A DNA stretch of 64,000 nt from Cenococcum geophilum (taxonomy: Eukaryota), in assembly GCA_050273025.1 (NCBI GenBank), contig CP158635.1, positions 14,446,001-14,510,000 of the forward strand. The letters run 5' to 3'. Within the stretch, counting starts at the first letter, position 1; every line of letters begins with the position of its first letter. The translations under genes were made by a program, and so were the position numbers. Shown here piece by piece: positions 6,271-30,143 of the stretch. The notes below the pieces were generated by a model. That model searched no databases. It was not told where the DNA came from and worked only from the letters and a program-made list of their open reading frames with translations.

Positions 6271-6344
6271 TGTCACCTTGATTCGATCGATCGATCGAAT
6301 CGTTTATCGTGTTCGCTGGCTGGTCGTTCGAACGGTTGTCGTGT

Positions 6345-6780
6345 GGCTCTGGCGACGGTCGTGTGGCGATGACGACGGTCGTCTGGCTCTGACGGTCGTC
6401 TAGCTCTGGCGACGGTCATCTGGCTCCGGCGACGGTCGTCCAGCTCTGACGACGGTCGTCCAGCTCTGGCGACGGTCATCTGGCTCCGGCGACGGCCGTC
6501 TAGCTCTGACGACGGTCGTCCAGCTCTGGCGACGGTCATCTGGCTCCGGCGACGGTCGTCTAGCTCTGGCGACGGTCATCTGGCTCCGGCGACGGTCGTC
6601 CAGCTCTGGCGACGGTCATCTGGCTCCGGCGACGGTCGTCTAGCTCTGACGACGGTTGTCTAGCTCTGACGACGGTCGTCTGGCTCTGACGGTCGTCTAG
6701 CTCTGGCGACGGTCATCTGGCTCCGGCGACGGTCGTCTAGCTCTGACGACGGTCGTCTGGCTCCGGCGACGGTCGTCTGC
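6345..6780. repeat. ~20-bp GC-rich minisatellite (GCTCYGRCGACGGTCRTCYR)
   Basis: About 20 tandem units with an internal dyad GACGAC-G-GTCGTC and no spacers. Confidence 0.92.
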
Positions 6781-6945
6781 TGGCTGTCGTTCTGGTGTCT
6801 TCCTAGGTAGGGAGGATGTAAGGAAGGGTAAAAAATGAGGTGGCTACCTAGGTGTATATAGGGGGTATACTTGGCAGAGGCACGTGTAGAGGCTATTGGG
6901 AATATAGCGGGGACCCGATAGTAGTGTGTCGCGCGCATACACAAA

Positions 6946-8058
6946 GGCTTTGTGTAGAGCTTCGTGTAGAGCCTCCGTATGCAGAGCTTCGCGCAGAGCC
7001 TCGTGTAGAGCTTTGCGCAGAGCCTCGTGCAGAGCCTCTATATGTAGAGCTTCGTGTAGAGCTTCGTAGAGCTTTATGCAGAGCTTCGTGTAGAGCTTCA
7101 TATAGAGCTTTGTGCAGAGCTTCGTGCAGAGCTTCGTGTAGAGCTTCGTGCAGAGCCTTGTGTAGAGCTTCGTGTAGAGCTTCGTGCAGAGCCTCGTGCA
7201 GAGCCTCTATATGCAGAGCTTTGTGTAGAGCCTCGTGTAGAGCCTCGTGCAAAGCTTCGTGTAGAGCTTCGTGTAGAGCTTCGTGTAGAGCTTTGTGTAG
7301 AGCTTCGTGCAGAGCTTCGTACAGAGCTTCGTGTAGAGCCTCGTGCAGAGCCTCTGTACGCAGAGCTTTGTGTAGAGCCTCGTGTAGAGCCTCGTGCAAA
7401 GCTTCGTGTAAAGCTTCGTGCAGAGCTTCGTGTAGAGCCTCTGTACGCAGAGCTTCGTGTAGAGCATCGTGCAAAGTTTCGTGTAGAGCTTCGTGTAGAG
7501 CTTTGTGTAGAGCTTCGTACAGAGCTTCGTACAGAGCTTCGTACAGAGCTTCGTGTAGAGCCTCGTGCAGAGCCTCTGTACGCAGAGCTTTGTGTAGAGC
7601 CTCGTGTAGAGCCTCGTGCAAAGCTTCGTGTAAAGCTTCGTGCAGAGCTTCGTGCAGAGCTTCGTGTAGAGCATCGTGTAGAGCATCGTGTAGAGCCTCT
7701 GTACGCAGAGCTTCGTGTAGAGCATCGTGCAAAGCTTCGTGTAGAGCTTCGTGTAGAGCTTCGTACAGAGCCTCGTGCGAGCCTCTGTACGCAGAGCTTC
7801 GTGTAGAGCCTCGTGTGGAGCCTCGTGCAAAGCTTCGTGTAGAGCTTCGTGTAGAGCTTCGTGTAGAGCTTCGTGCAGAGCTTCGTGCACGAATTCGTGC
7901 AGAACTTCGTGTAGAGCCTCGTGCAGAGCCTCTGTACGCAGAGCTTTATGTAGAGCCTCGTGTAGAGCCTCGTGCAAAGCTTCGTGTAGAGCTTCGCGCA
8001 GAGCTTTGTATAGAGCTTCGTGTAGAGCTTCGTGTAGAGCTTCGTGCAGAGCCTCTGT
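6946..8058. repeat. 12-bp minisatellite (GTAGAGCTTCGT) with periodic longer variant units
   Basis: ~1.1 kb tandem array; it produces the ASCR/EALH/TKLY pseudo-ORFs. Confidence 0.95.
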
Positions 8059-10499: not shown

Positions 10500-10618
10500 T
10501 ATTAGGAAAAAAATTTTTAGGCACGTTGTTGCAAGCGAAAATCGGGGTCTGCAAAACCTGCGTAAGTCGCAATTTTGGTAGTTTGCGGCGATTTGCAGCA
10601 ATTTGCTACGAACACATA
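10500..10618. repeat. Internal inverted copy of the large element's right end (matches 28279-28396)
   Basis: TATTAGG (RIPed CATCAGG) ...CGTTGTTGCAAGCGAAAATCGGGGTCTGCAAAACCTGCG...ACACATA is the reverse complement of 28279-28396 with a few changes. Confidence 0.92.
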
Positions 10619-10681
10619 GATAGGGTAGGCGCGTGCATAGGTATTGTTCTTGCCGAAATATCGTGAACTCGCGCCGGAGTA

Positions 10682-13600
10682 TTATAGTTTCCTTATCGAC
10701 TGCAACTCGCTTCTAGATAAAGGCCTCCCACATTAAATAATACACCCCCAATTGCCCCACTAAATATAGCTTTATATTTTATAAATAGAGGCCTATTTTA
10801 TAGCTCTATTCCAGGGCTATAAAATAAGCCCTTATTTATATAAATTGGACGAATATTAGTGGAATTATATGGGGTGCTTTATAACTTGAATTGAGGCTCT
10901 ACACTGACTAATCCGACCCCTTTACCCCCAAAATAAGCACCCCTTATAACACTACCAAAATAGCCCTAAATTATATAAATAAGGGCTTATTTTGCAGCCC
11001 TGGAATAGAGCTATTAAATAGGCCTCTATTTATAAAATATAAAGCTATATCTAGTGGGGCTATTAGGGGTGTATTATTTGATGTGGGAGGCTCTTATCCG
11101 GAGGCGAGTTGCAGTCGATAAGAAAACTTGTCGATCGGTAGTCCGTGCACCGATGAGTAAGTAAAGAATGAGGACTCTGTCTATTCAAACTATGAAGAAA
11201 AGAAGCTATTTATACATGAGGTAGGTCCAGGTAACTGAGTCAAAATAGGTAATAGAAACGGGTGGTGAGACCTAGGGCACTAGGCATCAAAGACAGTAGT
11301 AAGACGGTAGTAAGACGGTAGTAAGACGGTGGTAAGAAAACCTGATCTGGATTGACACACCCCCCTAGCTTTGAGCCCCTACGGGTCAAAGCTATATCGC
11401 GGGTCTTGGTATAGTATTAAGTCGAATATACCCTATATCTTCCTCCTTGCTTACCTTTTTTAATTTAGATCCTTTCCTTAATATTAACTAAATTTAATTA
11501 ATAAATAAATGTCTCGTGCTTCTGCCTTAGCAGAGCTTTTATTAAGCCGTCTGCTACTATTACTATAGTAGGCGTCTAGTTGATCCTAATTCGATTGTTA
11601 TGTACTTCTTGACGTAACCAGTAGTGGTGTATATTAACATGTCGGAGCTTTATAGATAGCTCTGGTCCGTCTTTTATAAGTAGTCGAATTGTCTATAGAT
11701 TGTTACAGTTAATCGTCTGCCTGTTATCTAAGGTTAATCCAATTTCTTTAAAGAAGCGACCCTACTAGATTAATTCTGTTCCTGCATATAATAGAGCTAT
11801 AAACTCTGCCTTTATACTTGACTTTGTTACTAATATCTACTTAGTAAAGCGCTAGTTAATTAGTCCCCTGAATAGGGTAAACAAATATCCTTCTATACTA
11901 CGTCTACTTATTAAGTTGTCTCCAAACGCTACGTCACTTGCTCCTATGAAGACCTAACTCCCTATATTATATCCTAAGTATTTAATCGCGAGGGTCCTTT
12001 TCTAATATAGGTAGGCGATTGCTTGACGAGCTGCGGCGTTATATAGGGGTAAGGGGTTTCGTAGGAATTCCGATAACTTACTTGAAGCTCTCGCTGTATT
12101 AGATCTCGTAATGCAGGTCGCATAGAGGAGTGAGCCGATTATCCTCTAGTAGACGTAGATGTCTTATTTTAAAGCTTCCTCCAGATTTAGTAGGAGCTTA
12201 TTAGTGCTTATAGGTATACTAACTAAGCGTATATTAGTTAAATAAAAGTTATTAGCAATCTTCTTAATATAGGAGTCTTAACAGAGCTATAGCTTCCTCT
12301 AACTCCTATCTCTTAAGACTTAAATTCCTAGGAACTAGGATAGTTTACCTAAGTCCTTTATCTCGTATTTCTTTATAAGCGCAGTCTTAAAGCTTAAAAG
12401 CTCTAACTAGTTCCCCTTAGTGCTTACGGCATAGATATCGTCTATATAGAAGAATATAATTAGCCGATTGTTATAGTAGAGACACGGCTCTCCGCTAATA
12501 GGCTTTAACCCTAATTTAGTTAGTTCCTGACTTAAGTCGTTATACTAAAGACGTGGCGATTATTAAAGTCCGTAGAGAGCTTTACGTAGTAGTAGACATT
12601 TGCCCTTAATAGTAAATCCATCCGGACACTTAATATAGACTATTTTGTTAATCAAGCTGTTTGCGAACGCGTTAATAGCGTTGCCCTGCTAAACGTCTAA
12701 ATTAAATACTGCGATGACTGCTATAAGAGCTCTAAAGACTTTGGCTGCCAGAGTCGCCGTATAGGTGTCCTTATAAATCGACTCTTATAGATCGCCTCTT
12801 ACACAAAGTCGTGCTTTAAACTTCGTTAGATATCTATTAGTGTCCATTTTATAGGTAAATCTCCAGGTCATAGGCACCGTTTTAACTGATAGTAACTTAT
12901 TTATGACCTTAAACGTTCCACGACCTTCTAGGTTAGTATACTCTTTTATAACAGCAGCAAGGAAATCTTCCCTATACTAGTGTCTTATAAGCTCCTTCTA
13001 GTTCTTAGGCGGAGGTGGTAGCTTATCGCGATGGATTTTCCTGTAATATTTTAGGCCTACGTAGAAGGCTGCCTAAAGCGCTTTAAAGCTATCTACCTTC
13101 TTAAGGTAAGTTAAATGAGCTATATATCATTTAGGTAGCCTTTTTAATTATTTACCTTTTATAATATTGTCTTCCTTAATAGCTGCGCCGTCTTTATCCT
13201 TTAAGTCATCCTCTACAGGTACGTATTTATAATGTGGTTATTAACAGGTAAAGGGAGCTAAGGAGCTTAAGGATTCTTTAGTAGGAATTAACTAAGGTTC
13301 TAGCGTCTCGTCTAGGGTAGGAAGGGCAGGTAGGAAATTGTCCTTTAAGGTTTATAAGCTTGCTACGTTATTATCTTAATTGGTTGCTTGGTCTTAATTT
13401 CCACTAAAATCTGCCTATTAATTTCTACTATTTTCTACTTAAATCTTATCTAAAGTCTTATTGTCCTTATCTGACGTTTTGTTAAGCTCTTCCTAAAGCG
13501 TCCTATTAATGTGCGACACATTAATTACCTCCAAAATTTAATTAGCGCGTTTTTGGAGCAGATTCGCGAGATTTAGCTAATTATTATTATAAAGCAATTG

Positions 13601-16407
13601 CTCATTAAATATAACGTCTCTTATTTAAATTACCTTTTTTTCGCTAAGTATATAGATCCTAAAGATATTTATTAACTGGTACCTAACTAGGTATCTAATA
13701 TAAGCTCTTAGCTTAAGCTTTTAAGTGCGTAGGAGGTTATATTTAAGTGGGTAGGCTCTACAGCCGTATATACGTAAATAGGCTATATTTAGCTTTAATG
13801 GCGAGAGCCCTAGTGCTAACTAAAGCTTCTTAAAAGGTGTTATCTAGCTAAGCTGGGCGTTTGGTGTCCGATTAATTAAATACGCTATAGCTCTAATAAT
13901 CTCTGGCCAGAGCTCTTCTAGTAATTAAGCTTCAATTCGCATACAGCGAGACTTAATAATAATTACCCCCCTAGAACATTTAGCAGAACCGTTCTAAGAC
14001 TTTATATATAGGGCCGATTACTCCACTATAATTCCTTTTTAGTTCGTCTAACTATAGAAGTCGCCACTAAGGGAGGTCTCGCTATTGACTTGGATAACCG
14101 CAATCTTCTGATTATATTAACGCTTCACCCTGTTTGAATATCGTATAATTGCTTGCGTTAACGATAACTTTCAGGCAAAGGTCTCTACCTCGTTTATTCG
14201 CAGAAATTCGTCATAGAAATGTATCGTCTATTTATGACCGTTATACGCCACAATCTCTTAAAATAGGTCGATATATATATAGTAGAAGGGCCTCGTTGCC
14301 TTGTTGGTAGGTGCTCTTCTTAATACAATTTCGCGAGCCTTGCTGACAGCATAGGATTCACAGTTAATTGTCGCTGGTCCTTAAAGCTTCGCACCTTCTA
14401 CCTCCTAAGGTAGATGCTTAATTGCCTTCGGTCTTATATGGCCTAGTCTCTTATACTAGAGCCTTCCTACTACTTCTTAATTAGGAAGGGGGTCTTGTAA
14501 TTAGATTATAAATAAGGCTTTTGGCTTATTATATTCAAACGTGTTTTAGTTATAATGTTACCCGCAATAGGTAAATATTTTATAATTGTCTTTGTAATAT
14601 AGTAGGTTCTTTTTATTATCCTACTATATGTTTTTATTGTTAAACCTATCTAGATAGGCCAAATTTGTATGGAACGCTAGTATATATGCTGCATTAGCTA
14701 GTAGGATCCTCTTGGGGCCTGCTGGCGTCTAGATTATAACTACTACTATCCCTATGCCCTTAACTAGATCTAGGCCCGTTCCGGCGTATATAAAGTTATT
14801 ACTTAGTTAGAGCTTGTCAACGAATCTTAATCAATCGTTAATAATATATATTGTGGTTCCGTTATTAAAAATCACGCTATTATATAGCTTATAGTCAGAA
14901 CCTACATTATAGGCGCCTACTTGGTGTACGGCGAAGATACTATAGTTGTTTTCCTTTTGACTTCCGTCTGGGTTCCGTACGGCTTCCTTTTGTGGAGCTT
15001 CCTTGCTTAAAGCCTCCTTCCTTATCTTCTTAATCTTTGACTTGGTCTAATCTAATACGCTTATAATTCTTTCCTTAACTTTTGTAGCTGTGGCTTTGTT
15101 AGATTTCTAATCCTTTAATTAAACCGATTTGTTAATATAAGGACACTCTAGAAACCAGTGAATATCTCCGCAGTAGCATAGTGGGGCGTCTTTCTTCTGT
15201 GACGTCTTAGACGATGTAGTAGTAGAGGTTTTGTCCTTAGAAGCCTTATCCTTAGAAGCTTTATCCTTAGGAGCTCCGTTAATTAACTCGCCCTAGAAGC
15301 CTACTACATTAGCGCTAAGCTAATCCCTTCTCTTTTAGGTAGTCTCTATTCGTTAATAGTTCCAATATATTTCAACTAGTCAATCTATAGATATTATCTA
15401 GTTACTAGCCCAGTTGTATTTGTTAAATTCGACCCTCTACATTAAAGCCCAGTTTGGTAATGCTGGCTCTACCGCCATTAAAAAGTCTCTAATTATACGG
15501 TCGCCGTGTACGTCTAGCAATTTGATCTTTTTGCAGTCGTTATATGTCTTCTCCTACTACTATAATTAGGCCTCAAAGTTCTGGTTCTTTAGACCCTTTT
15601 TAACCTTAGTATATTAAGTGGATAGGTATAGCTTATATGCTATATTAGTAGGGGCAACCCTCTCCTTAAGAGCCACCAGGGTATTATATACCGAGTTAAT
15701 ACCCAGTATATAGGTGTTAAGGTTCCTAGCTACTATACTAATAATATAGCTTCGTAGGGAGGTTAAAGCTACCTTCTACTTCTTATATTCCTTCTTTACT
15801 ATTTTATACCTCTTACGGAGAATTTAAAGCTCATCCTTCTTGTCCTTAGAGAGAGCTATATATAAGGTCGTTCCTGTCTTTACATCTTAAGGCCTAGGAA
15901 AGACTAGTTTAAGCAAACAGGGCAACTAATTCTGTTTGGTTAAGGGGTTAACATATTCCCATATATTTCCTATTTAAGCTTAAAGCCTAATAAGGTTAAT
16001 CTATTCGTCCTAATCAGCTTAGTTTAATAATATTACCGTTATAGTAACAGCTTAAGTAGTTTAAGAGGTTATATTAAGAGGTGCTTGCAAAGACGAATAA
16101 AGTATTTAATAAGGGATAGGATTAATTAAATTAATAGGTGTAATACGGCAAGTCACCCGGGCTTATAACTGTCAATTAGTAGTCCGTACACTAATAAGTA
16201 AGTAAAGAATAAGGACTCTATCTATTTAAACTATAAAGAAAAGAAGCTATTTATACATAAGGTAGGTCTAGGTAACTAAGTTAAAATAGGTAATAGAAAC
16301 GGGTGGTGAGACCTAGGGCACTAGGCATTAAAGACAGTAGTAAGACGGTAGTAAGACGGTAGTAAGACGGTGGTAAGAAAACCCAATCTGGATCGACAAA
16401 ACTATAA
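10682..16407. mobile_element. ~450-bp foldback MITE (10682-11128 plus 16404-16407), interrupted by a Copia near its right terminus
   Basis: Almost entirely self-complementary (TTATAGTTTCCTTATCGACTGCAACTCGC.../...GCGAGTTGCAGTCGATAAGAAAACTATAA). TA at 10680-10681 and 16408-16409. Confidence 0.88.
11129..16398 (-). mobile_element. Copia LTR retrotransposon, full length, RIPed
   Basis: 229-bp LTRs at 11129-11357 and 16170-16398; TSD AAACT. PBS-like GTTATAAGCCC next to 16169; PPT next to 11358. Order is zinc knuckle (~15160), protease DNGTT (~14860), integrase (~13985), RT FYVDDI (~12445), RNase H. Confidence 0.95.
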
Positions 16408-16564
16408 TAAAGCCGGTCATCGCGCACCACCCAATTTCACATAGAAATCGATGCCATTGATTATTTTTGCTTGCCCACGCCTTCCACCCCCAACAATTAC
16501 GGCGTAAAATCATACTTTGGTCTAGCTGCATTAAGCCAATTATATAGAATTGCTGGTGTTAACC

Positions 16565-18148
16565 ATGGAGCCGCCTATACGTGTATTTAGTCGCGCTAAT
16601 AAGGGCCAAAATTGCAAGCGTGCATTGTCTACTACCTCACCAACGTAGGCTTCTAAAAGGACTCTAAAGCGTCGTTTAAAGCTTATTTTAAAGAAGGCTT
16701 TAAATTATTAAGCAAGGCGTCGTACGGAACCACCGCAGCAACTACCGTTACCAATATTTGTAGAGTCTTCGCCACCACGGCCAGAGCAGCTAGATAAGGA
16801 GGAGGAGGAGGAGGAGGAGGAGGAGCCAAAGGAGGAGCTAGATAAGGAGGAGGAGGAAGAGAAGGAGGAAGAGAAGGAGGAAGAGAAGGAGGAAGAGAAG
16901 CTAGAGGAGCAGCTAGAGGAGCCAGAGGAGTAGCTAGAGGAGGAGCTAGAGGAGGAGCCGGAGGAGCTTCCTATTAGCTTTATAAGTCGGTAGAAGGTAG
17001 TATATAGGAGAAAGGCCTTACCTGGTGCGGTATCTTTAAAATATAATACTACTAACCTCTTCTACTACCTAATTGAGCGCTGGTAAGATAGTATTATTGC
17101 TAAGTGCCTACCGCGGATCTTTACCGTTAATCGCCTTAAAGCCACTGCCTCCTATAAGAAGTAATTAAAGACTAATCACTTCCGCTATAAGATTGGTGAT
17201 TATTGTAATCTATGTAAGGTAACTAAGCTGCTTAAGGATCTTTATAAGCAGAATCCTACTAAGTTATTATACTTAGATCTTACCTTGTATATAATTAAGG
17301 AGAAGCCCCAAGAGATACTAGTACTATTATTAACACCTTTCTTTAGCTAAGCAGTAAGATCTAGTAAAAGAACTACTACCTAAATCTAAAAAGCCAATCT
17401 CCCTAATATTATTGCCGTAAAGGAAGCTGCTAATAATAGGATTCCGGCTCTAGTAAGTAGATAGCCTTATATTAATAGCTACTATTCTAATAAAGGAGCT
17501 ACCTGCTAACAAAATAGACGTGGAAATAAAGCTAATTAAGTTAAGCACTACTATCCTATTAATACTTATATCCTTTAGAGGTGGAGTAGAGAGATCTAAT
17601 TAGATATATTAACGGTTAAGGAGCCATTACAAAATATAGTCTATTAGCTGTTAGCTTAAAAGATAAAATAGCAGCTACTAAAGAGTTAAAAGCTAACGGC
17701 AGTAGGAGGCTTACTATCTAAGTAAGTTAAGGACCTTATTTAGCTAATTACTGTTTAGGAGTTAAACTTAATAAGGTATCTAGATTAGCAACAGCATACT
17801 TAACCCCTGCCTTCCTCTGGTATTAAGCCGCCTACTTAGTTAAGCCTAGTATAGTTAGAAACGGATTATTATAAGATCCTCTTATAGTTCTTTAACTGGC
17901 TAAGAGCTTAGCTAAGCCATTCTAATAAGCGTTAAAGGCAGATTCTGGAGTTAATTAGGTATACGTTAGTAGAGGACAATTAGGATATTAATAGAATAAG
18001 ATCTTTAAAAGATATAACGATTAAGATCTGGAAGGATTATGGCTTTCTAATTAGCACGCTATCGCGAATAAGAGAGAAAATAGGAGAGTTTAAACGGTAG
18101 AGAGTAGTATACTATAAGTAGAGAGTAGATTATAGAGAGTCTCTATAA
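16565..18148 (+). pseudogene. Accessory Cys/Trp-motif protein, copy 2, with a poly-Glu tract
   Basis: ATG at 16565; GAG-rich tract ~16795-16965. De-RIPed WPC...CSNKGATCW...HYP...RWSREI...TVEEP at ~17462-17630. C-terminal YGFPIGTLSRIREKIGEFKR. Stop position uncertain. Confidence 0.75.
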
Positions 18149-18154
18149 AGAGCC

Positions 18155-19173
18155 TTATTCTACTATATAGCCAGCCCTTTTAAAATAGCCTTCCGCATAA
18201 ACTCTATAAGCTTAACTAATTACAAACTCTAGAAATCTATTAAAGCTCTTAAAGTTAACCGCTAGTATATAGTTTTTTTTTATCTAAGCCTTTAGATCTT
18301 TAAAAGTTGCCTTAATTAAATTAAAATCTGGTAAATATAGTGGTAGGAATTTAAGAATAACACCTACCTAGTTATAAAGCTCTTAAAGCCGCTTTAACTT
18401 ATAGATAGATGCGTTATCTAGTATAATAATTAATTACGGCCCTGGGTACGGTATACAATTAGGTAAAACTTTATACTCTATAAAAGCCTTAAAAAGCTTA
18501 TTTATAAAAGCTCCTTAAAAGATAATATAGTCTATATAGCCTTTAAGCGTTAACGCCGGTAAGATGCTCCACCGTTTAGATCTTTTATATAGCGTTAACA
18601 CCTTACAGTCTGCACTAACTGGCGCCTAGCCTTATTTTCTATCACTAGTCCTCTTATTTAAAGCCGACTTATTAAGAAAGATAAGCTAGTTAGCAAGCCA
18701 TTCTTTCTGCCTACTTTGCCACGTATAATGGAGCAATAAGCTTTACTAAGCGGCACGATTAGAGACTACCTTTTAAGAGTACTAAGCTGCCTTAAGAATA
18801 CGGCGAATAGTGGTAATAGAGGCTTAGATGTCGAATTCGTTAAAGAGGAAGTCTTACATCTCGTTAAGATACGCAGTAGGCCTGTCTTTAAGATACTTAA
18901 GCAGTTACTATAAGTGGGCAGGAACGTTAATAAAAAACTTAACATTATGCCAAGAATACTGACCTGCTTTTGATACTCCAAAAGAAGGCCCGGTCTACCT
19001 AGTTTTACAGTAGATGGCGCGTATGGTTGGCCCCAAAGGTCCTAGTTTAATTGAAGCTTATAAACAGTTGTTTTTAACAGCCCTAAAGCGACTGCTATAT
19101 TAGGGATGTACTCATTAAGATCTAAACGAAGCTTGATTTGGTTTATAACCTTAATTAGAAGACAACGGCCTAT
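18155..19173 (-). pseudogene. IS630/Tc1 DDE transposase (RIPed)
   Basis: N-terminal HTH (IAVALGLSKTTVYK...GRP), FLDESA ~18675, LDNASIH ~18415, FLPPYSPDFNPIE ~18350-18312. Confidence 0.9.
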
Positions 19174-19547
19174 TATAACGACGTGTGCAAGCAAAAATAA
19201 TCAATTGCATCGATTTCTATGTGAAATTGGGTGGTGCGCGATAACCGGCTTTACTCCGGCGCGAGTTTACGATATTTCGGCAAGAACAATAGCCTATCCG
19301 CCTCAGAGTCCTACAGGGTCCGCAAGGTTCGGTGTCGCCCCCCCCGTGCGCGCAGCAGCGGTGGCATCTAATTTCGCTTAAGCTTCGCCTAAGTTAGTAT
19401 GTAGAGCTAGCAGAATTAGATGTAGTGGCCGCTAGGGGGGGGAGACGTCGCCTTACATTTGAAGCTATTTATAATATCTCTTCCTTACCAATATCGTGAT
19501 CTTTATTCTAGATCATAGTGTAACTCTTATTGTCGCCTCTATTAAAT

Positions 19548-20577
19548 ATGGCACCCAATATACATAAATGGCAATACGTCTTCCTTAAAATCCTTATTAA
19601 CGCGGGCGCCACTAATTAATAGTATCGTGTTTAAGCCAAGTGCTCTTATAGAGCTGTTTAACGAATTTAACGGAAACTAGAGAGGTACGGAAGGACGAGA
19701 CTTAGTTGTGTATACTTTGGCCTAAAGAGTGCACTAAGCTCTTAGATAATTATTGTATTGCTTTACCGACTTAATAAGGCACCAAATCTATATCTAAATA
19801 AGATGGCTTGGTATATATACAACAGTTTTAGAGTTATAGTAGGCCCGTGAATAATTGCTGCAGAGTTAAAAGTCGCTGGCTGGAGTAGGAAGCTGGTAAG
19901 CTACATTCTAAATATATGGATGAGGAAATAACTTACTTATATATAAGGCTTGTTGCGTTACTTTAGAGTGGAGTTAGGAAAACCGCAATTAATACTAGGC
20001 CAATATCTTATAGTTTACTATTAAGTAACTTGTCTTTATAGACGAATCTAGCGCTAATTTAAAGACGGGTATACGAAAGTTGGCTTGGGCGCCGGTAGGC
20101 ATAACGCTAATCCTATATACTCTATATAATCGCGACAAGCAGCGGCTTAATATTCTACCTATGTATACTATTAACGGTATACTAGTATTATTAGTATATA
20201 GCGGCTTAACGAACGCGGAAGGATATAATTACTAGATTAAATACTACCTCCTGCCTTACTATAATCCTTATTTAGCTCTGAGGTTAGTAGTTATTATAGA
20301 TAATATAAGCTTCCACCATTTAGAACGGATTAAGTCTCTTTTTGCTGAGCGTGGTATAGTGCTTATCTATTTACCTGCATATTCGCCTGATTTAAATCCG
20401 ATTAAGGAGTTCTTTAGTAAGCTAAAGGAGTATATTTAACGACATTTTAGATTATGGAGGAGTAAGCCAGAGCTTTGGGGTAATGAGTTTAAAAACTTCC
20501 TATAGTGGTGTGTAGATACTATAGGTAGAAGGAGTAATAACGCTAGAGCCTATTTTGGCTATAGTGGGTATATATAA
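19548..20577 (+). pseudogene. DD34E transposase (RIPed)
   Basis: ATG at 19548, FIDES ~20035, DNxSFH ~20299, LPAYSPDLNPIEEF ~20371-20412. I counted 34 residues between the second D and the de-RIPed E. Confidence 0.92.
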
Positions 20578-20599
20578 GGAAGGATTGATAGAAGAGTTA

Positions 20600-22670
20600 G
20601 TAAGTTATTAGATTTGGGTTAAACCTTATAATCTTTAGCGTGGTGTTTTTTAGTAGGAGTTAGACGTTGCCTTAGTCGGCTTACTATATTACAGAACTCT
20701 TATATAAATTACTAGTAAAATCTATATTCTACCCTAAACTTTTAGGCAAAGCTATACTAGTATAAAAAATCTACTGCTTATCTTCCTCTAAATCCTTAAT
20801 ACTACTAAAAAGCTAAGCAACTTATAAAGTCCTCTAGTTCTTAATATCCTAATATACCTATTCAGCAATTGCCTCTAGTACTCCCTTATTAATTATTATA
20901 TCAACTAGTATTTTACCCTCTTTATTTAGCTTTTACTCCCTAATAATCCTTAAGTCCCACCGCTTCTTATAAGTAACTTAATAGGCGGCTTTAAAATTAC
21001 TTTCCTACTCTAGGTCTTCTTGTACTAAGAGCTTCTGCTAGTTAAAATACTCCCGTAAATTAGCTATGTGATTTAGGCCTTACAAACAAGGCAGAGGAAC
21101 TATAGGTAATGATTTTATAGTTAGGTCTTGCCCTAATAGTAGTATAGCTGGACGCCTATACTGCCTACTAGTTAGATTAATATAAAATTAATTGATAATG
21201 CTAGGAGTATTAGGTGTAGGTAACTTAGTAAAGGTAAATTAAGACTTCTTACTACCTCCCTTTTTCTAATCTTGAAGCTTTTTAAATAGCTTACTATGAG
21301 GTGTGCGAATAGTAGCTAAACTATCCTTAATAGCCCGCGCCCACTCCTTAAGGTCCTTCTACGTTAGCTTATAGTTAACTTGGCAATAGATCTAGCACTA
21401 AAAAGAGCCTAGGTACCTCTTCTTATATTTCCACTCCCTATATAGCTCTAGCCGAAGCTTAGTAGTCTTTAGGTAGGGGGCTAGAGAACGAGCAATATCA
21501 CTAGCCTTATACTATTTAGATTGCGGTATATTTAAAGGCATATCCTATAAGGAGATAGTGGCAGCTAGCTATGTTAATAATGGCTATGTTAATAACTGTG
21601 CGGCTATTATAGAATAATTAGTAGAGCGAGCGGTAGATCTAGCTTAATTGTTTACCTTAATATATATAAAGCTAACTTTAACTAAGAGCTACTTAGTAGA
21701 GCCGTCTATATTCCAGTACTTCTTTACTAAGCTTATAAGTTTACTGTTAATTAAGCTCTAGCTAGCTTCCTGACTAGGATTAATCTTAAATATCACTTAA
21801 GTCTTATTCTTCTTAGTATATAAAACCGACGCATTACATAACTCTCGTATAACGCGATAGCTAGGAAGCTGCTGCTTAATAGCCTCATTAATTATAGGCA
21901 GCATATTATAACTATATGCGAGTGAGAGGCTTAGGTGAGAGTCAGTAAAAGTATATATAACTATATTCTGAGTCCGTACACCCTTCTTAAGCTTCGCTAA
22001 TAATAAGAGACGATAGTTAAAAAAAGATACCTCTACTGCTTAGCTTTGCCTGCTCCAATTCATGCTTAAATTAAAGCCTTAGTAGTGGCTCCTCCTCCTT
22101 ACTTTCCGTCATTAAATCCTTAGGTGTTGGCTTAAATACTTGCGAAGGAAGTATAGGGGGTCTCCGCAATTGACGCGGGGTTTGTATATAGTGGCTAATA
22201 TTATCTAGATTAAGCTCTGGGTAGAGGTATAGTAATTAATAATATTGTTACTGACTTAAAGGACGATAGGAACCTATATTTAAAAGCTACGTAAGACGCG
22301 GCAGCTGCGGAGGAGCCCTCATTGTATTATAATCCTGCGATTAATAGAAGCGTTAAACCTCCTCACGATCTACCTCCTCTGCTGCCTTAGGATGATTCAA
22401 TATTTCCTTAAGCTCGCCGTTAGTAAAAGCAGCTGCCTGCCGTAATGGAGGCAACCCATTAAACGCTATTGGTAGAGAGAAGTTAAGCTGCGTGCTAATC
22501 TGGCTACTAAATACGGGCGGCAGAGTCACGACCGTACTTATACTTAAGCTCTGCGTTAAGATAGGTGGTTAAGGAATAGATAAGGATAGTATTGGCGACA
22601 GTCGAGGCCTTTAATGGGGTGGACGAGAAGGACTTCCAACGGCGGCAGCGGCAGTACGTTTAGAGCTCAT
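20600..22670 (-). pseudogene. Accessory Cys/Trp-motif protein, copy 3
   Basis: ATG at 22670 (MSSKRTAAAAVGSP). De-RIPed EWKCEKRxPGSFWCWIHCQV...DLKEWARAIKDGLATIRTP at ~21436-21300. C-terminal KGVPEAIAEQVHQDIKNW. Confidence 0.75.
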
Positions 22671-23147
22671 ATTGACGAGAGGAAGGCTCTATTACACTAA
22701 GATCTAGAGCAGATATCACAATATTGGTAAGGAAGAGAAGTTGCGAATAGCTTCAAATGCAAGGAGGCGACGTCTCCCCCCCCCTAGCGGCCACTACATC
22801 TAATTCTGCTAGCTCTACATACTAACTTAGGCGAAGCTTAAGCGAAATTAGATGCCACCGCTGCTGCGCGCACGGGGGGGGCGACACCGAACCTTGCGGA
22901 CCCTGTACAGCCTGTTGCACGACCAGCTTCCCCCCCCCTCAAAAAAAAAGTTAATTTCGCTTCGGTACGCGGGCTCACTAAATCGCCACCAACTGTATAT
23001 AGTAATCGAAGCGAAGCCAAGTACCTATACGCAAGTGCTGGTTGCTAGGGGCAATTAAATTAAAGCTATATATTTAGAACTTGCCTAGCTTACCAAAGTC
23101 TCAATTAATTCAAAATCGTGTCCTAAAATCGTCAATTTGCCTTCAAT

Positions 23148-25000
23148 ATAAATCCTCCTTCAAAACGCGTAGCGGCTCAATTAACGGGTATATCTCCTCG
23201 CCCTTAACAAAATCGACAAAGCCTCCTTCCTCCCTTATTACGTACGTCTCTACCTTCATTAAGTCACCGGGGTGTCCTACAATAGCCGCCAAGACACAAA
23301 TACAACGCTATTTAGCTAGACTTTACATTAAAGGAGCTTAAGGAAATAGAAAATAATCTGGAAGCTATAAATAAGGACAATAAGGAAAATACGGAGGCTT
23401 AGCTTAACTATATATAGAGTTAACAGACTTCTTATACGCAGAGCTAACAGGCTTCTTAAAATCAGATCGGCCGATCAACTCAATTAAGGCCGTATAAGTC
23501 ACTGTATTTAATATAAGATCCTACCTACCCACAGTCAAATATAATAACACCATAATATTAAGCTATAGCCTTTTAGGCAGCTGCTTAAGCTTATCTAGCT
23601 CCTTAGTCTCCTTTACAAAATATAATTAAAAATAAAGAAGAAATAACTCCGCCGCCTTACCTATATATAAAGAGTAAGATTAGTAATATAGGAAGAGCTA
23701 GCGGCGGCGTGTTTATTACTTATAATTATAATATATTAATTTAATATCTAAAGGAGCTGGTATTTACTAAAACTCTCGTTAATATAAGCCTTTAATATTA
23801 TAATCTTTAGCGACTTTAAGTCTTTCCTATTTATAAGAGGGAGCTACATTATTAAGAGCAAGGTATTCGCGTTAAGCTCTAGCCAATTAAGGCAAAGGTT
23901 AACACTTAGCATATAGGCGTTTATAATATTAGGTTTAATATAGATTCTAAAGTCGCAAATTAGTGGCAGAAGGTTAATACGCAACTCATTATATAGGCTC
24001 AACATACTAATAGACGTGGCGAGATTAAGGCTCTAACTATTAACCTCTTAATTATATATACTCCAGATAGAAATTAGCTAGTAGGTAGCTCTCGCCCATT
24101 AATAATTAATTAACTCTATAATAAACTTCTAACGCCCTCGCAGAGCTTAGAGCTTAATATAACGCCTCATATACCTACTAGTAGTATTACAAATTTAATA
24201 GGCTTACAAGTTAAGCTTACTAGGTATTAGCGCTATAAAAAGCACTATTTTAACGCCAATTGGTATTATATACTTAGCTAGGTAGATATTAAATTAATAG
24301 ATAAGGACTTACGGGAGTAGGTAACTAGTATTTAGCAAGGCATCGCAAATATTAAGAATCTACCTTATAAGCTTGCTACTCGGCTTACTAAGAAAGCGGC
24401 AACAAGAGGAAAAAGTGGTAGAAAAGTACGCCAATCTGCCTCAAGCAAGAGCTCTACAGTTAATAGCCTAGGCATCATTAATTACTTTCACGTTAGCTCT
24501 ATAGGCTCAATATTAGATTAGCAAATTACTTCTACACCAGTAAGCCGACTGCCCTTATTATCCTTACCTATATTACTAATATACCGCTTATAAGGTATTA
24601 ACCGCGCAAAAGATCTAAAGGAGTTCTTTAAGTATTAGAGGCAGAGTGTAGCTAGCAATCTTAACTAGGAGGCTGATTTCAAAGCTACGCATAAGGTTGT
24701 CTATAATTTAAGGTAGAACTTAGAGCTCCTACGTAATAAATCTAATAGCGCTAATCCTATTAAGGAGCTTATTAAGGCTAGTATTAAATCAGGTGTCGCA
24801 AGACGGCTATAGAAGGACTTAAAGAAGTGGGCAAATAAGCGTCGTACGCAGCTTAAGGGGAATTTTCAAGATATAGATAATTAGCAAAATATAGGGTGTC
24901 TCTGCCACTGCTAGCGCCCCTATAGTGGCAGAGACGCCCTATATCTGGGTTCTTTAAGATATAGATTATCGTAATTAGCAAAATATAAGGTCTCTTTATT
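23148..25000 (+). pseudogene. Accessory Cys/Trp-motif protein, copy 4
   Basis: RIPed start ATA at 23148 (MxPPSKRAAAQ). De-RIPed WRCEKHCSNANWCY...DLREWxTSIQQGIANIENPP at ~24228-24365. C-terminal GIKSGVARRLQKDLKKW at ~24780-24830. End approximate. Confidence 0.75.
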
Positions 25001-25122
25001 ACTACTAGCTCCCCTATAGTAATAAAGACACCCCATATATATAATAGATTAAAGCCTTTTAGTAAGTTATATACGGTCAAAAACGCTACCAAAGATCAAT
25101 TGCAACTCTTACCCTAAAAACC

Positions 25123-26158
25123 TCAATAATTATACCCACTATATTGGAAATGGCCTCTTACACTCTCGCTCTTGCTACTAACCTTATTTATACACTAAAG
25201 GAGGAACGCTTTAAAGCTATAGCTAAAGTTTTCTAGGTACTCTAGCTAAGAGAACTACTACCACTAAATAAAGTCCTTTAGCTCTCTAAAAAACTCTTTA
25301 ATTAGATTTAAATTAGGTAAGTATAATAGTAAATACACTAGCTTAACTCTAAAGGTATTAAAGAGAGACTGCATCCTTTCTAAATAATAGAAGCTGGCGT
25401 TATCTATAACTACTACTAATCACTTAGCAGGAAAGCGATTATATTATAGTAGAAGAGTATATACCACCCAGAACTTAAAGCCTTTACTATTTATCAAGCC
25501 TTTATATACCAAAGCTGCTAGTATGCCGTTAATCGTATATATAGGCAGTATATTAAGCCTCCTCTTACCCCAATTATATGGCGTCTATAAGACTGGTATA
25601 ATACTAAAAGGAGCCTAGCCTACCTTCCGTACGCCTATCTTTGAATCCATACCTAACTCATCTACAAATACTAGTTAATTGGCGGTATACTATAATATAA
25701 TAGCAAAATATATATCACAATCGTAAGCGCTACATTTAAGAGCTACCTAGTAACACTTCTTTATATAAGCTACTCTCTAAGCTCTATACTAGAGGATTTA
25801 ATTAGCTTACTTGCTTCCTTATCTAGCCAGCTAAATAGAGCTCTTAAAATATTATATAGCGGCTTACTATAACATTAAACGTATTATAGATTAGCTATTA
25901 CAACTCATTACCAAAGAGAGTTGGCTTCTCCTTTAGCTGTATTAGTATTACCATAATCATCGGATCGCTTAGGAGGAACTAGCCGCCTTCACTATTTAAA
26001 GGTACCCAAGTTAAGCTAAAAACTCATAAGTTCCTGCTAATTAAGGTAATTAAGCGAATCGTACAACTAGCGGCGGAGGTATACTCTGCTCGGGTCGCTC
26101 CAAGTTAAAGAAGATCCTTAATTAGGGCGTGCTAATATGGGCCTATTCGCGGAGCTAT
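25123..26158 (-). pseudogene. IS630/Tc1 DDE transposase (RIPed)
   Basis: MAPRIG... start, FVDExG ~25665, DNASF ~25400, YLPPYSPDLNPIEEFF ~25335-25290, TGA at 25125-25123. Confidence 0.9.
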
Positions 26159-26381
26159 ACTACGGGTAGAAGATAGGTAGAAACCTCACAATATTTAACA
26201 ATAATCACGACATAGGAAGATCAATCGTGGACAGCTTTAGGAACAAGGCTCTTACAGCCAAGCATACGGCTTCACTTCGATTACTATGTACAGTTGGTGG
26301 TGATTTGGCGAGCCCGCGTACCGAAGTGAAATCAACTTTTTTTTTTGAGGGGGGGGGAAGCTGGTCGTGCAACAGGCTGTA

Positions 26382-28239
26382 CGTAGCTCAACGGGCCACG
26401 TAGCTCAACGGGCCTGCTTAGCCGAAATCTAATACACCACTTTTTATTAGCAATCTGTATACCATAATTATGTCTAATAAATACAAAACTGAAGAGAAGC
26501 GCGTCTAAGATGCAATTAATTACAAAAATCGACATCCTGGGTTATTGCTTAAGACGTACGCCAATGAATTCGACGCGCCATATAAACGTGTCGTAGCGCG
26601 TCACAAGGGCGTGCAAAGCAAGATGCAGAGGCCAGGAAGCAATAAGAAGCTTAATTCTATATAGGAGCAGATGCTTCTGGCATATATTAAGCGCATGGAT
26701 TGTATAGGAACTTATGCCTTAATCCATCAGGTCCACGCTGCCGCTGAGCGCATCCTTATCCTCCACGCCCAACCTGGCACTAAGCCCGCCTCTCTTAAAC
26801 GCGACTAGACTAAGAACTTTATTAAATAATATAAAGAAACACTCTATAAGGTTAGACAGAAGCCTATAAAGGTAGAACGAGCTGCTTTAAATAATTTAAA
26901 TAAGATAGTGGAGTGGTATACGTTATATAAGGACATTAAGGCAAAATACGGTATACTCCTATGCGACGAATATAACTTTAATAAGTCTGGGTTTTGCATT
27001 AGGATAAGTAGCGCGTAGTGGATTATAACGCGAGTTTTAAACAATAAAAGATTGTATTTAGTAAGTGAGATAAACCGCGATTTTACTTCGGTATTGGAGG
27101 CTATATTTAGTAATAGTGTTACGCTTAATCCGGCGGTTATTATTAAAGGTGCCCAAATTATACACTAATACCTTAATAATATAGATATACTAGATAGGTA
27201 TATGCTAGGTACGTAAAAAAGAGGCTACTTAAATAATAATCTTGCGTTTAAATGGATTTAGCACTTTAATAAGCAGAGCGCACGTTAATAGATAGGCGCG
27301 CATTAACTGCTATTACTTAACGGCCACGGATCGCACCTTATGATAGAGCTAGCTTAATATTATAAAGAAAGGAATATTTATCTTTTAGCACTTCCGGCCT
27401 ATATAAGCCACTTTCTATAACCTCTTAATGTGGTATTATTCCAGCCGTATAAGCACCACCATCGACGTACTATTAAGATGGCCGTCCGAACGGGCTGTAT
27501 AAACTTTAACATCGTTAAGTTCCTATACGCTCTATACCATATTCGGGTCACCATATTTAAACCCACGTCTATTAAATCGGCATAGGAGAAAGCTGGCCTT
27601 ATTCCATATAATCCTAAGCTTGTTTTAACCAAGTTGCGACACTAAACTGCTGTTATACGCCTATCTATACCCCCACCTATAAAAAGTGTCTAGCCACCGT
27701 TGCAGCCTGCGCCCCTCTGGACGCCTATAACACTAAGATCTATTTCTTAAGCTATTAGCGAGCTTCGTAATTACGTATATAGACAGGACGTAAGGCACCG
27801 GGGCCCGTTATATAAGCTTATAAAGGGTGCTAGTATTAATGCCACGCTTCGCGCGTTAGCTAAGGAAGACCTATATAAAACGCAGGTAGCGGTACAAGCG
27901 CGCGCAAAGCAACAAAAAGGCGACCAACGTGTCGTCTCAAAGGGAGGCCTTATATCTGCTAAGGACGGACGACTTAAGGTATCGCAGAGAGTCCGCGCTG
28001 AGGCAGAGAAGGCAGCTAGAGCTGCTGCGCGTGCAGTAAAGAAGCGGGCTGCTGAGGACGCCAAGCGGGCTGCTAAGGCCGCAGCGGCGCCAATTTTGGA
28101 CAGAGAGTAGATAAAGACTATCGCATTAATTACTATACTACAAATATTAATATATCTGTCTTGCACGTGGAGCTATATAGCTTTAAAGTTGTAAGGTGCG
28201 GGGCATGGCCCGTTGAGCTACGTGGCCCGTTGAGCTACG
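26382..28239 (+). mobile_element. Fot1/Pogo-family DNA transposon (RIPed transposase ~26470-28110)
   Basis: ~33-bp TIRs with an internal direct repeat ACGTAGCTCAACGGGCC; TA flanks. De-RIPed YNFDESGF ~26971, LLDGHGSH ~27313, LQPLDV ~27415. Confidence 0.93.
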
Positions 28240-30143
28240 TAGGACTCTGAGGCGGAGCCGAAGAGTCCGTGGGGCGGATATGTGTTTGTAGCAAATTGCT
28301 GCAAATCGCCGCAAATTGCCAAAATTGCGACTTACGCAGGTTTTGCAGACCCCGATTTTCGTTTGCAACAACGCGCCCAAAAAAAAAATCCTGATGTCAG
28401 TCAATTGAGGCATGGGCACGGCAAAGGGGACGCGCAAGCCTGTACGATTGGATTGTCTATAAACGAGAATCTAAAGCTAGGGAAAGGAAAGGAGAAGAAG
28501 AGTAGCGCCGTTTAATGTTTTATAAGATCTTCGCGTTACATAACCGCAATATACGGCAATCTGTGGCAACTTGCCGGTGCGTAGTTCTGCTAAGTTCTGC
28601 CAGTGCCGTAATATTACCCCCCCCTCTAAAAAAGCCTACCCTTAGGCTTTGCCGCTAAAAGTCTTAGTAAGAGAATCTAACTAATTAGATAACTTTAACC
28701 GCCGGTTAAAGTTCCTAGATATCTTAACACCTTACATAACTAAGAAATTTTTAGAGTATTTTTGTTCTTATATTCTTCTAGTAGCTTATTATCTTTATTA
28801 TACTAGCATTCTATTTACTTATCTAGGTACTTTAACGGTCTAGGTTTATTAGGGTAACAGCTATAAAACTCTTAAAGCTTATAGGGGCTACCTATAAAGT
28901 TCTATATAGGGTACTAAGTAGGGTCTAGGTTATATTCTTTCTAACTAATATAATACTTTAACGTTCCCTTTATAAGTTTATAGGCTAGTATTTCTTTAAT
29001 TTCCTATTTATTATTATTATTAACTTAAATTAGTAGGGGAGGTTAATTTTTTTATCTAGGTAGTAGGTTATTTATAGCTTTTTATAGCTTATTTAGTAAG
29101 AAGATAGGGTAAACTTTAATTAAGTCTGGGAGCTTAACCTTATATAAGTTGCCTACTTTATTAAAAATCTTATACAGTCCTGCCATCTTATAGTCTAGCT
29201 TATAGTTAGGCGGTTCTATCTTCTAGTTCTTTATTATAACCTAGACTATATCGCCTATAGTAAAATTAGGCTTATACTTATACTTATTCGCCTACTATTC
29301 TATTAATTTTAAGCCTTTTTTAGGTTTGTATAGGCTACTTTCTAAGCTTCTTCTAAGCGCTTAGCGTACTACTAGGCTTCCTTATAAGATAGTTTTTCGC
29401 GTATAGTCTAGGGCCCTTTTAGTCTTTCCCAGTTAAAGCTTATATAGGATAGGTAACCTATTTCTAGTTAAATAGGGGCAAATCCGGTAGAGTTGTGGGG
29501 TAGGGTGGCTTAGGCGTAGTCTATTAAGGGTAATAGTTTAGCCTAGTTATTCTAGAAGTAGTTAATTAAAGGCCGGAGTTTTTAGTTTAAGTATTAATTA
29601 ATAATTTCTGTTTAACCGTCTATCTGGGGGTAATATGCTATAGAAAGCTTTAGCTTAATGCTTAAGATTTAGGTAAACTTATTCTAAAAGGCTAATATAA
29701 ACTATAGCCCGCGGTTAGATATAATAGTATTTAGTAGTTCGTAAATTTAGTAGACATAGTAGATATATAATTAGGCCGCCTCTTTAGCATTAATATTTTT
29801 ATAATAGGGAATTAAAAACGGGCGTTTGCTAAAGTGGTTAACTAGGATTATAACTATATTATATCCGTTATGGTCTAGAGGTAGCTTATAAAAGTCTATA
29901 AAGATATATTACTAGGGGTGGTTGGGTATTAGAAGGGGTTTTAATAGTTCTAGGGTTTTATCTTATAGAATTATAGACCTATAGTAGTTATTGCAGTTCT
30001 ATATATAGCGGTTAATATCTATAATTATTCTAGGCTAGTAGTAGCGATCGCTAATAATCCTACGGGTTTTATTTTTTCTAGGGTGGGCCGTAAAGACCTA
30101 GGTATATACTTTGGCAATAAGCCAAGTCCGTAAGTTCTATTTC

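Follow-up and report, generated by a model that had tools for sequence, protein, structure and literature searches.

The window analysed here is a 64,000-nucleotide stretch of Cenococcum geophilum DNA (contig CP158635.1, 14,446,001 to 14,510,000), and its region 19297..28278 is a case of ordinary transposon nesting in repeat-rich fungal DNA, a known kind of structure. The levels of the nest are a Tc1-like host element (H), a pogo/Fot1-like element (E3-full) in the right TIR of H, and two further Tc1-like elements (E1 and E2) in the left TIR of E3-full. The features are the following, in window coordinates, with the strand where one was assigned.

8060..10465: G, a TIR element flanked by TA, no more than 33 nt away from the recognisable left TIR of H
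10501..10681, minus strand: outer part of the left TIR of H (arm A), with 21 nt that are absent from the right arm at the E3 site
10682..16407: TA-flanked fold-back MITE in the left TIR of H, in pieces (10682-11128 and 16404-16407) around a Copia insert
11129-16398: the Copia element that splits the MITE (duplication AAACT; RVT_2 8.7e-35)
16408..19294, minus strand: inner part of H, Tc1-like (inverted arm matches and DDE_3)
16408-16486: left TIR of H, inner part
about 18272-18685, minus strand: DDE_3 remnant of H
19175-19294, minus strand: inner part of the right TIR of H
19297-28278, plus strand: E3-full, pogo/Fot1-like, with 72-nt TIRs and TA duplications at 19295-96 and 28279-80
19295..19296: TA target-site duplication on the left side of E3-full (from the sequence; the 12 family ends elsewhere are also TA-flanked)
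19297..19311, plus strand: outer remnant of the left TIR of E3-full, 15 of 37 nt, the "left palindrome arm" (alignment to the left ends of L004, L006 and L009)
19312..19313: internal TA of the E3 TIR and left copy of the E1/E2 target duplication (insert-free in 11 of 12 family ends)
19314..22905, plus strand: E1, RIP-degraded Tc1-like, 3592 bp, with CAG...CTG ends
about 20029-20472, plus strand: DDE_3 remnant of E1
22906..22907: TA common to E1 and E2 (from the sequence)
22908..26379, minus strand: E2, RIP-degraded Tc1-like, 3472 bp
about 25267-25674, minus strand: DDE_3 remnant of E2
26380..26381: right TA copy of the duplication made by the E1/E2 insert (from the sequence)
26382..28278, plus strand: remainder of E3-full, with the inner left TIR, the DDE_1 remnant and the complete right TIR
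26382-26414: inner left TIR of E3-full, two 17-nt tandem units
about 27076-27474, plus strand: DDE_1 remnant of E3-full
28207-28278: complete 72-nt right TIR of E3-full, containing the "right palindrome arm" at 28242-56
28279..28280: TA target-site duplication on the right side of E3-full (from the sequence and family ends elsewhere)
28281..28391, minus strand: outer part of the right TIR of H (94% inverted match to 10514-10618)

E1 (3.9e-25), E2 (9e-10) and H (4.3e-15) are assigned to the Tc1-like elements by matches to DDE_3 (PF13358); the match in E1 covers positions 2-144 of the 146 in the profile, with RIP substitutions and stops that make calls of the catalytic DDE/D triad unreliable. 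TA flanks E1 and E2 on both sides, and the outer portions of their TIRs are perfect: in E1 the outer 131 nt are identical (100%) and identity is 92% over about 210 nt, and in E2 the corresponding figures are 45 nt (100%) and about 112 nt (93%). An extension of the E1 or E2 TIRs past their TA was considered and rejected, the outside sequences not being inverted repeats of each other. The junction at 22898-22914 reads ...GGACCCTG TA CAGCCTG..., with exactly one target-site duplication between two complete ends. The gap-free single-TA junctions of the first-pass annotation (E1 19314-22905, TA 22906-07, E2 22908-26379, TA 26380-81) are exact, inverted repeats were found at the ends of all the elements that it delimited (E1, E2 and an inner element), and its family calls stand (DDE_3 on the plus strand in E1 and on the minus strand in E2; DDE_1, 5e-14, on the plus strand in the third element). 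E1 and E2 lie tail to tail, in opposite orientation, and are colinear homologues over about 2.7 kb with unrelated TIR sequences and ~30% identity in translated comparison.

The arms of H match each other at 10514-10618 and 28279-28383 (inverted, 94%), at 10637-10681 and 19252-19297 (96%), and at 16408-16479 and 19182-19253 (96%). The tips of H cannot be placed because an LTR element (copies at 40123 and 52306) cuts off the right tip near 28392-28399. Twelve contigs of X1, one of the runs X1-X4 of a single sample, have the same arm-A type sequence (loose-end consensus at 28279).

All of these elements carry the mark of RIP. In X1, transitions predominate where other family copies differ from the window (C>T 533, G>A 517, A>G 416, T>C 371), each type of transversion numbering 12-40, and the element interiors have TpA/ApT of 1.4-1.8 and (CpA+TpG)/(ApC+GpT) of 0.58-0.85, that is, the transition excess, high first index and low second index of RIP-affected repeats. 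The TIRs are visibly spared.

The TIR of the pogo/Fot1-like family

Comparison copies of the pogo/Fot1-like element came from soil or root metagenome contigs (loci L001-L010), and their interiors are 88-92% identical to E3-full. A scan for ends that allowed at most 6 substitutions returned 12 ends, the overlapping loci L005 and L007 being left out. The outer 37 nt, the TA and the inner TIR are contiguous in 11 of these 12 ends, and 22 nt of the "right arm" recur without mismatch at 10 distinct TIR ends, nine of which run straight on into the family's inner TIR. Beyond each of the 12 ends lies a TA and then unrelated flanking sequence, and four complete copies have their ends ~1.94 kb apart. 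The 72-nt TIR is made up of 37 outer nt, the internal TA and 33 inner nt, and the window pieces 19297-19313 and 26380 onward together align into exactly this family TIR. From the left TIR of the window copy the outermost 22 nt are absent, the gap lying between two TCCGCC direct repeats. On the other side, the span 26382-28239 has inverted-repeat ends of 35 nt at 100% followed by TA 28240-41, and the inverted repeat extends through this TA for 37 nt further rightward, to 28278. The boundaries first given to the third element were set too tight: its TIR reaches 28278 on the right and takes in, on the left, the 15 nt regarded as flank, and the proposed end of the whole array, 28256, falls inside the pogo/Fot1-like element. 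No relatives of E1 or E2 are present at the 10 loci compared.

E3-full belongs to the pogo/Fot1 group: it has a TA duplication, TIRs bounding ~1.9 kb and a DDE_1 domain with a Tc5/CENP-B-type HTH (DDE_1, PF03184, at 5e-14 in the window copy; DDE_1 at 1.9e-21 and HTH_Tnp_Tc5 at 2e-5 in the less degraded L009 copy). The window copy is riddled with stop codons and encodes no active transposase, and in the best copy elsewhere the ORF reaches a stop after only 389 aa; the stops in E3-full bear on activity, not on ancestry. An extra 54 nt in the right arm of H had been considered as a repair product (templated snap-back synthesis after excision) or as a tiny TA-flanked MITE; both readings were dropped because the metagenome copies show a pogo/Fot1-like TIR.

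Order of insertion and the shared TA

As a whole, the locus is very probably explained, on its sequence, by a three-level nest of TA-inserting cut-and-paste transposons, all degraded by RIP since. In the order of events that we infer, H (~3.3 kb, TIRs of ~290 nt) would already have been resident when a pogo/Fot1-like element of ~1.94 kb entered its right TIR. Either E1 or E2, related Tc1-like elements of 3.5 kb, would then have entered the internal TA of the pogo/Fot1-like left TIR, duplicating it, and the other would have entered one of the TA copies directly beside the end of the first, giving the gap-free E1-TA-E2 arrangement. The second Tc1-like insertion would thus have reused the duplicated TA, since each insertion presumably regenerates its target. 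Relative to other sequences, 22 nt are gone from the left TIR of E3-full and 21 nt from H at the insertion site (by comparison with its other arm); therefore, either the insertions were not perfectly clean or deletions followed.

The element boundaries, the family to which each is assigned, the unbroken 72-nt TIR of other copies, the duplicated TAs and the RIP signature are observed directly; what remains to explain is the double insertion at one TA. The adjacency of E1 and E2 may be due to chance, two independent insertions having hit neighbouring TA copies with no preference for sites flanking TIRs, an explanation that we consider unlikely but quite conceivable. TA-targeting elements are numerous: by a rough, unmeasured inference, a few thousand copies and ~10 million TAs would lead one to expect one abutting pair per genome, and the depth of E1-like and E2-like words in X1 is tens of times the single-copy depth. 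The window was moreover chosen for looking odd, and none of the 11 intact pogo/Fot1-like ends elsewhere has an insertion at the internal TA. Against chance, the four cases in the window of a TA-element inserted into a resident DNA transposon all fall in or at TIRs, although TIRs contain just 27 of the 414 TAs of H (6.5%) and 6 of the 234 of the pogo/Fot1-like element (2.6%). Two of seven pogo/Fot1-like family copies in the metagenome contigs lie 3-9 nt from the end of another TIR element, and a randomly inserting family would hardly ever be seen in tandem, as far as the parts of PMC5932611 consulted go.

These counts hint, weakly and post hoc from very few events, at a preference for TIRs. We tentatively propose, while holding it doubtful, that TA-targeting transposons preferentially enter the short, GC-rich, RIP-spared TIRs of resident elements, or the adjoining TA, and so build ordered nests and gap-free pairs. 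As a possible cause, homopolymer-rich TIRs might remain nucleosome-poor islands in AT-rich heterochromatin, and Tc1/mariner elements might favour bendable linker DNA. The first-pass suggestion that TAs next to existing TIRs are targeted survives in part: E1 and E2 do share one TA and the four window insertions are at TIRs, but the support is weak, coming from a small post-hoc sample without a genome-wide control. If true genome-wide, such a preference would help to explain how nests grow in RIP-affected fungal genomes, and would connect the choice of a target, in a way open to testing, with chromatin or DNA structure.

Origin of the palindromic sequence

The locus had drawn attention as a train of three transposons at the centre of a perfect palindrome. 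The strings quoted for it are exact (TCCGCCTCAGAGTCC at 19297-19311 before TA 19312-13, and GGACTCTGAGGCGGA at 28242-56 after TA 28240-41), and the 15+15 match is not chance, the window containing the 15-mer nowhere else. What was taken for a palindromic landing site is, however, the two ends of one decayed pogo/Fot1-like element. Mental removal of E1, E2 and the pogo/Fot1-like body leaves the "32-bp perfect palindrome": the 15 outer nt that the truncated left TIR retains, then the TA, then the 15 nt with which the outer right TIR begins. Its symmetry is simply that of a pair of inverted repeats, as all TIRs are. Since its arms lie inside the TIR of this element (11 of 12 ends), the "empty site" is a part of the element, not a chromosomal target. 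Nor did three families from two clades use one TA: only E1 and E2 share a site, they belong to one clade, and the third element is their host. The resemblance of the inner 8 nt of the palindrome, CAGAGTCC, to the E1 termini, CAGGGTCC, was treated as coincidence.

The 72-nt TIR could itself be composite: an inner pogo/Fot1-like element (ends CGTAGC...GCTACG, with its own 33-nt repeat) would have inserted at the TA in the middle of a palindromic, MITE-like shell of 76 bp, and the whole would have moved since by means of the shell ends. The internal junction does look like an ordinary terminus with its TA, the two 17-nt units of the inner repeat form a perfect inverted repeat by themselves, and at L008, an end that the simple "72-nt TIR" reading leaves unexplained, an outer arm with no inner element lies beside TA-CTACG-TA, in the manner of an excision footprint. 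Yet a free shell was found at none of the 12 ends, both parts are present at all the other ends, it is commonplace for a long TIR to contain several internal repeats, and L008 can equally be read as a deletion remnant. We thus regard the composite origin as improbable and retain a single pogo/Fot1-like element with a long TIR.

That three families in succession struck the central TA of a chromosomal 32-bp palindrome, by targeting dyad centres for their structure, is most improbable, and such targeting is already refuted at this locus. In its favour are the exact strings and single-TA junctions, together with the liking of DDE transposases for weakly palindromic, bendable targets that is described in the part of PMC5481204 consulted. 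Against it, the arms travel with the third element, as parts of its TIR, in 11 of 12 ends elsewhere; no unoccupied 37+TA+37 or 15+TA+15 site was found among the matches of the scan; the sequence is wholly absent from the other arm of H and from 12 other family contigs; and the outer flanks of the four complete pogo/Fot1-like copies show no dyad symmetry.

That the gap-free junctions are an assembly artefact, made from mis-joined repeats, is hardly credible even in a region of multi-copy families: (i), the break in the host TIR falls precisely on a TA, of which one copy stands at each side of the insert, and the two halves rejoin into the family TIR, (ii), the arms of H rejoin in a similar way and, (iii), runs X1-X4 contain 0.68-0.71 of the sampled words of the stretch. 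In a comparison of contigs with the window at 80% likeness, thousands from other family members dominated, and none of those listed spans the four junctions. Some strains contain only 0.11-0.15 of the sampled words, a share that says neither that the nest is present in them nor that it is absent.

The main value of the analysis is thus a correction: a mis-set element boundary and ordinary nesting lie behind a "palindromic target reused by three families", and the locus should not serve as evidence for structure-specific targeting. A practical warning follows, as a TIR with an internal TA and a terminus-like sequence makes a nested insert mimic a train at a palindrome.

Relation to known systems

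The adjacency of E1 and E2 recalls the tandem dimers described by McGurk and Barbash (2018, PMC5932611). In the portion of that study consulted, insertion duplicates, and hence preserves, its target, and a second insertion leaves one duplication at the junction. E1 and E2 are likewise complete, with exactly one target-site duplication between them, and the same target-regenerating mechanism would apply; unlike the dimers, which are of one family and head to tail, they are of different though related families, stand tail to tail and lie inside another TIR. MITE multimers of plants and mosquitoes, adjacent or nested more often than expected and formed by independent insertions (Jiang and Wessler 2001, as excerpted via PMC5172404), are similar in that DNA transposons have inserted into or beside each other; the excerpt concerns short non-autonomous elements and genome-wide counts, whereas full-length elements in a RIP-affected fungus, and a handful of cases, are at issue here. 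The RIP-mutated AT-rich mosaics of Dothideomycetes (PMC3105345) are also gene-poor, AT-rich stretches of nested, truncated class I and class II elements, and the sections consulted reveal no essential difference; TIRs spared by RIP are seen here, and no discussion of such sparing was found in those sections.

E3-full resembles the pogo/Fot1 group of the Tc1/mariner superfamily in its TA duplication, ~1.9 kb length, DDE_1 with a Tc5-type HTH, and TIRs. It differs in its TIR of 72 nt, which includes a TA 37 nt in from the tip and a tandem pair of 17-nt units, and in being RIP-degraded, with a left tip short of 22 nt and two nested elements inside. The Fot1-like DTF_Elwe of Leptosphaeria maculans has 2,173 bp and a 57-nt TIR, according to the sections of PMC3105345 consulted. 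E1, E2 and H share with Tc1-like elements of the DDE_3 (IS630/Tc1) type the TA duplication, the CAG...CTG termini and DDE_3. At 3.3-3.6 kb, they are about twice the usual size; homopolymer runs occur in their long TIRs (110-290 nt), and an additional ~2 kb, which is colinear in E1 and E2, has no match to a Pfam family.

The palindrome and the pogo/Fot1-like element

The first-pass annotation described three transposons in a gap-free train at the central TA of a perfect 32-bp palindrome, which it took for the empty site. The strings it quoted occur in the window exactly where it placed them and its single-TA junctions are correct, giving the following block.

Block as read in the window
19297-19311, left palindrome arm, TCCGCCTCAGAGTCC
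19312-13, TA after TCCGCCTCAGAGTCC
19314-22905, + strand (DDE_3), Tc1-like element E1, 3592 bp
22906-07, TA between E1 and E2
22908-26379, - strand (DDE_3), Tc1-like element E2, 3472 bp
26380-81, TA between E2 and the inner element
26382-28239, + strand (DDE_1), inner element, 1858 bp
28240-41, TA right of the inner element
28242-56, right palindrome arm, GGACTCTGAGGCGGA

All three units (E1, E2 and the inner element) carry inverted-repeat ends, and their interiors are AT-rich with many stop codons. Six-frame translations in which stop codons were read as X matched DDE_3 in E1 (+ strand, E 3.9e-25) and E2 (- strand, E 9e-10) and DDE_1 in the third, pogo/Fot1-like unit (+ strand, E 5e-14), which bears out the family calls. 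The transcription is thus correct, but the structure is mis-parsed.

Soil or root metagenome contigs were scanned for exact matches to 22 nt of the right arm (28240-28261), which gave 10 loci with 10 distinct ends (L004 overlaps L005 and L006 overlaps L007). The 37 nt starting with the "right arm" run straight into the inner inverted repeat of the pogo/Fot1-like family at 9 of these 10 ends; on their other side come a TA and unrelated sequence. When up to 6 substitutions were allowed and L005 and L007 were excluded, the outer 37 nt, TA and inner repeat were contiguous at 11 of 12 ends, a TA lay outside the element at all 12, and the internal TA was free of inserts at all 11 intact ends. In the four complete copies the ends lie ~1.94 kb apart. 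Interiors of the family copies are 88-92% identical to that of the window copy, and the less degraded copy at L009 matches both DDE_1 (1.9e-21) and HTH_Tnp_Tc5 (2e-5). In the window, 19297-19313 and the sequence from 26380 onward align to reconstruct a 72-nt repeat; the left tip lacks its outermost 22 nt, the gap falling between two TCCGCC direct repeats.

Judged by these alignments, the "palindrome" consists of the two terminal inverted repeat (TIR) tips of the pogo/Fot1-like element itself, together with its internal TA, and a palindromic empty site is contradicted by the 11 contiguous ends. Because the outer 37 nt, TA and inner repeat are contiguous in other copies, the true third element extends well beyond the inner unit:

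19297-28278, pogo/Fot1-like element, TA duplications at 19295-96 and 28279-80

The right arm of the Tc1-like host element H has 59 nt at the block site vs 23 nt in its left arm, and the left-arm type of sequence is found in 12 contigs of other H copies (sequencing run X1, loose end at 28279); the palindrome is therefore not part of H. As the metagenome copies show the pogo/Fot1-like TIR, the idea that it arose by repair or as a tiny MITE was dropped. A composite origin, in which the inner element entered a shell formed by the outer arms, draws on locus L008, where an outer arm occurs without the inner element, and has a low probability. The L008 remnant (420-520) consists of one 37-nt outer TIR arm on its own; it comes after a footprint-like TA-CGTAG-TA and sits between imperfect inverted host flanks (GGAAGTAC / GTACTTC).

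Host element H and the E1/E2 pair

The DNA flanking the block is not unique: it makes up one arm of a more extensive inverted repeat. Three pairs of inverted segments were found: 10514-10618 with 28279-28383 (94%), 10637-10681 with 19252-19297 (96%) and 16408-16479 with 19182-19253 (96%). With inserts removed, the paired arms delimit H, with TIRs of ~290 nt; a DDE_3 remnant lies at ~18272-18685 (- strand, E 4.3e-15). The left arm is split within its TIR by a TA-flanked fold-back MITE of 451 bp (10682-11128 and 16399-16407; arms of 194 nt, 87%), itself split 4 nt from its right end by a Copia element (11129-16398; RVT_2, E 8.7e-35; duplication AAACT). In this nest the pogo/Fot1-like element lies inside the right TIR of H, and E1 and E2 lie inside the left TIR of the pogo/Fot1-like element, at its internal TA. 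An assembly artefact behind the junctions is strongly opposed by the internal logic of the nest, since the halves of every split host fit together precisely at a TA that was duplicated.

At the insertion site in H, the right arm (19290-19296 / 28279-28290) lacks 21 nt relative to 10612-10645. Both the left arm and 12 contigs from elsewhere in the family have these 21 nt, between two TAs; the pogo/Fot1-like element therefore ends at two formerly different TAs, 21 bp apart. Its site is no plain duplication: sequence was either deleted from the target or lost afterwards.

Reuse of one TA by three families from two clades, as originally claimed, narrows to two related Tc1-like families: only E1 and E2 share a TA (22906-07). 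They adjoin tail to tail and are colinear over ~2.7 kb, including ~2 kb beyond the transposase, while H has only the DDE region in common with them. Their TIR sequences differ, and neither has a repeat reaching past its own TA. All elements of the nest use TA as their target and leave it duplicated; the first arrival, E1 or E2, would have left two TA copies and the second would have entered one of them. Double insertions described in Drosophila and bacteria yield tandem elements with exactly one target duplication at the junction (cases in PMC5932611), and this route is the most likely origin of the pair. The interiors were later degraded by repeat-induced point mutation (RIP). The structure is ordinary nesting of RIP-degraded TA-transposons plus one double insertion, an arrangement of a known kind.

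Around the nest, a TA-flanked TIR element, G (8060-10465), is separated from the left arm of H by no more than 33 nt, and GC-rich minisatellites (6080-8057; units of 4/8, 20 and 12 nt; GC up to 0.58) abut the TA at its left end. The right tip of H is truncated by an LTR element beginning near 28392-28399. Large LTR-element copies occupy 28392-64000, with LTR-like starts at ~28397, 40123 and 52306 and long repeats (80-94%) at 28.4-39.2 kb and 52.3-63.2 kb. In each of the four runs, summed word depth peaked in bin 28266-28600, far above every other bin (160,786 in X1), so the LTR family there is very high-copy.

RIP and a possible insertion-site preference

Differences between the window and other family copies are mostly transitions, and RIP indices are typical in interiors, not in TIRs: across E1, E2, H and G, (CpA+TpG)/(ApC+GpT) is ~1.0-1.4 for TIRs vs 0.58-0.73 for interiors. 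The outer 131 nt of E1 are still 100% identical between its ends. By these base patterns, TIRs have escaped RIP while interiors were heavily mutated.

TIR stretches spared by RIP
19314-19444
22775-22905
22908-23018
26268-26379
28207-28278

Targeting of palindrome centres had been proposed, with random flanking TAs named as its refutation; the outer flanks in the pogo/Fot1-like family are unrelated TAs, those of the four complete copies show no dyad symmetry, and the proposal fails for this family. A weaker pattern is that TA-elements may prefer RIP-spared TIRs and TIR-flanking TAs. All four TA-element insertions into resident DNA transposons in the window fall in or at TIRs:

MITE into H
pogo/Fot1-like element into H
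first of E1/E2 into the pogo/Fot1-like element
second of E1/E2 at the duplicated TA

Of the 414 TAs in H only 27 lie within TIRs, and of the 234 in the pogo/Fot1-like element only 6; the product over three independent events is ~1e-4 by TA count or ~2e-3 by length, both rough, post-hoc figures, present-day TA counts being inflated by RIP. Two of seven family copies in the metagenome loci lie near the end of another TIR element. At L001 (2326-2984) the neighbour is 654 bp long, has perfect repeats of 43 nt and ends 3-5 nt away; at L009 (4910-5155) it is a CAG...CTG MITE of 234 bp, bounded by perfect repeats of 32 nt, at a distance of 9 nt. The other five copies have no neighbouring repeat within 300 nt, and retroelements interrupt two pogo/Fot1-like interiors (a 211-bp TG...CA solo LTR with duplication CTTAA at L003, 3194-3404; an LTR element truncating the L010 copy at ~574); both observations count against a general rule. 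Adjacent and nested DNA-transposon multimers are known from plants and mosquitoes (as treated in PMC5172404), and Tc1/mariner elements reportedly prefer targets in nucleosome-linker DNA that is bendable and weakly palindromic (in the account of PMC5481204).

Oversized Tc1-like elements

At 3.3-3.6 kb, E1, E2 and H are roughly double the length typical of Tc1 elements (regions 20500-22690, 23020-25260 and 16480-18270). No Pfam match with E below 0.01 was obtained for the extra ~2 kb of E1 and E2. On the strand opposite its transposase, H carries a glutamate-rich reading frame (16775-16975). There may be a second gene. Contigs from two other strains (runs X13 and X6), in which ~19539-19549 is fused to ~22593-22598, represent MITE-like derivatives of the E1 family that have lost their interior and retain hardly more than the TIRs.
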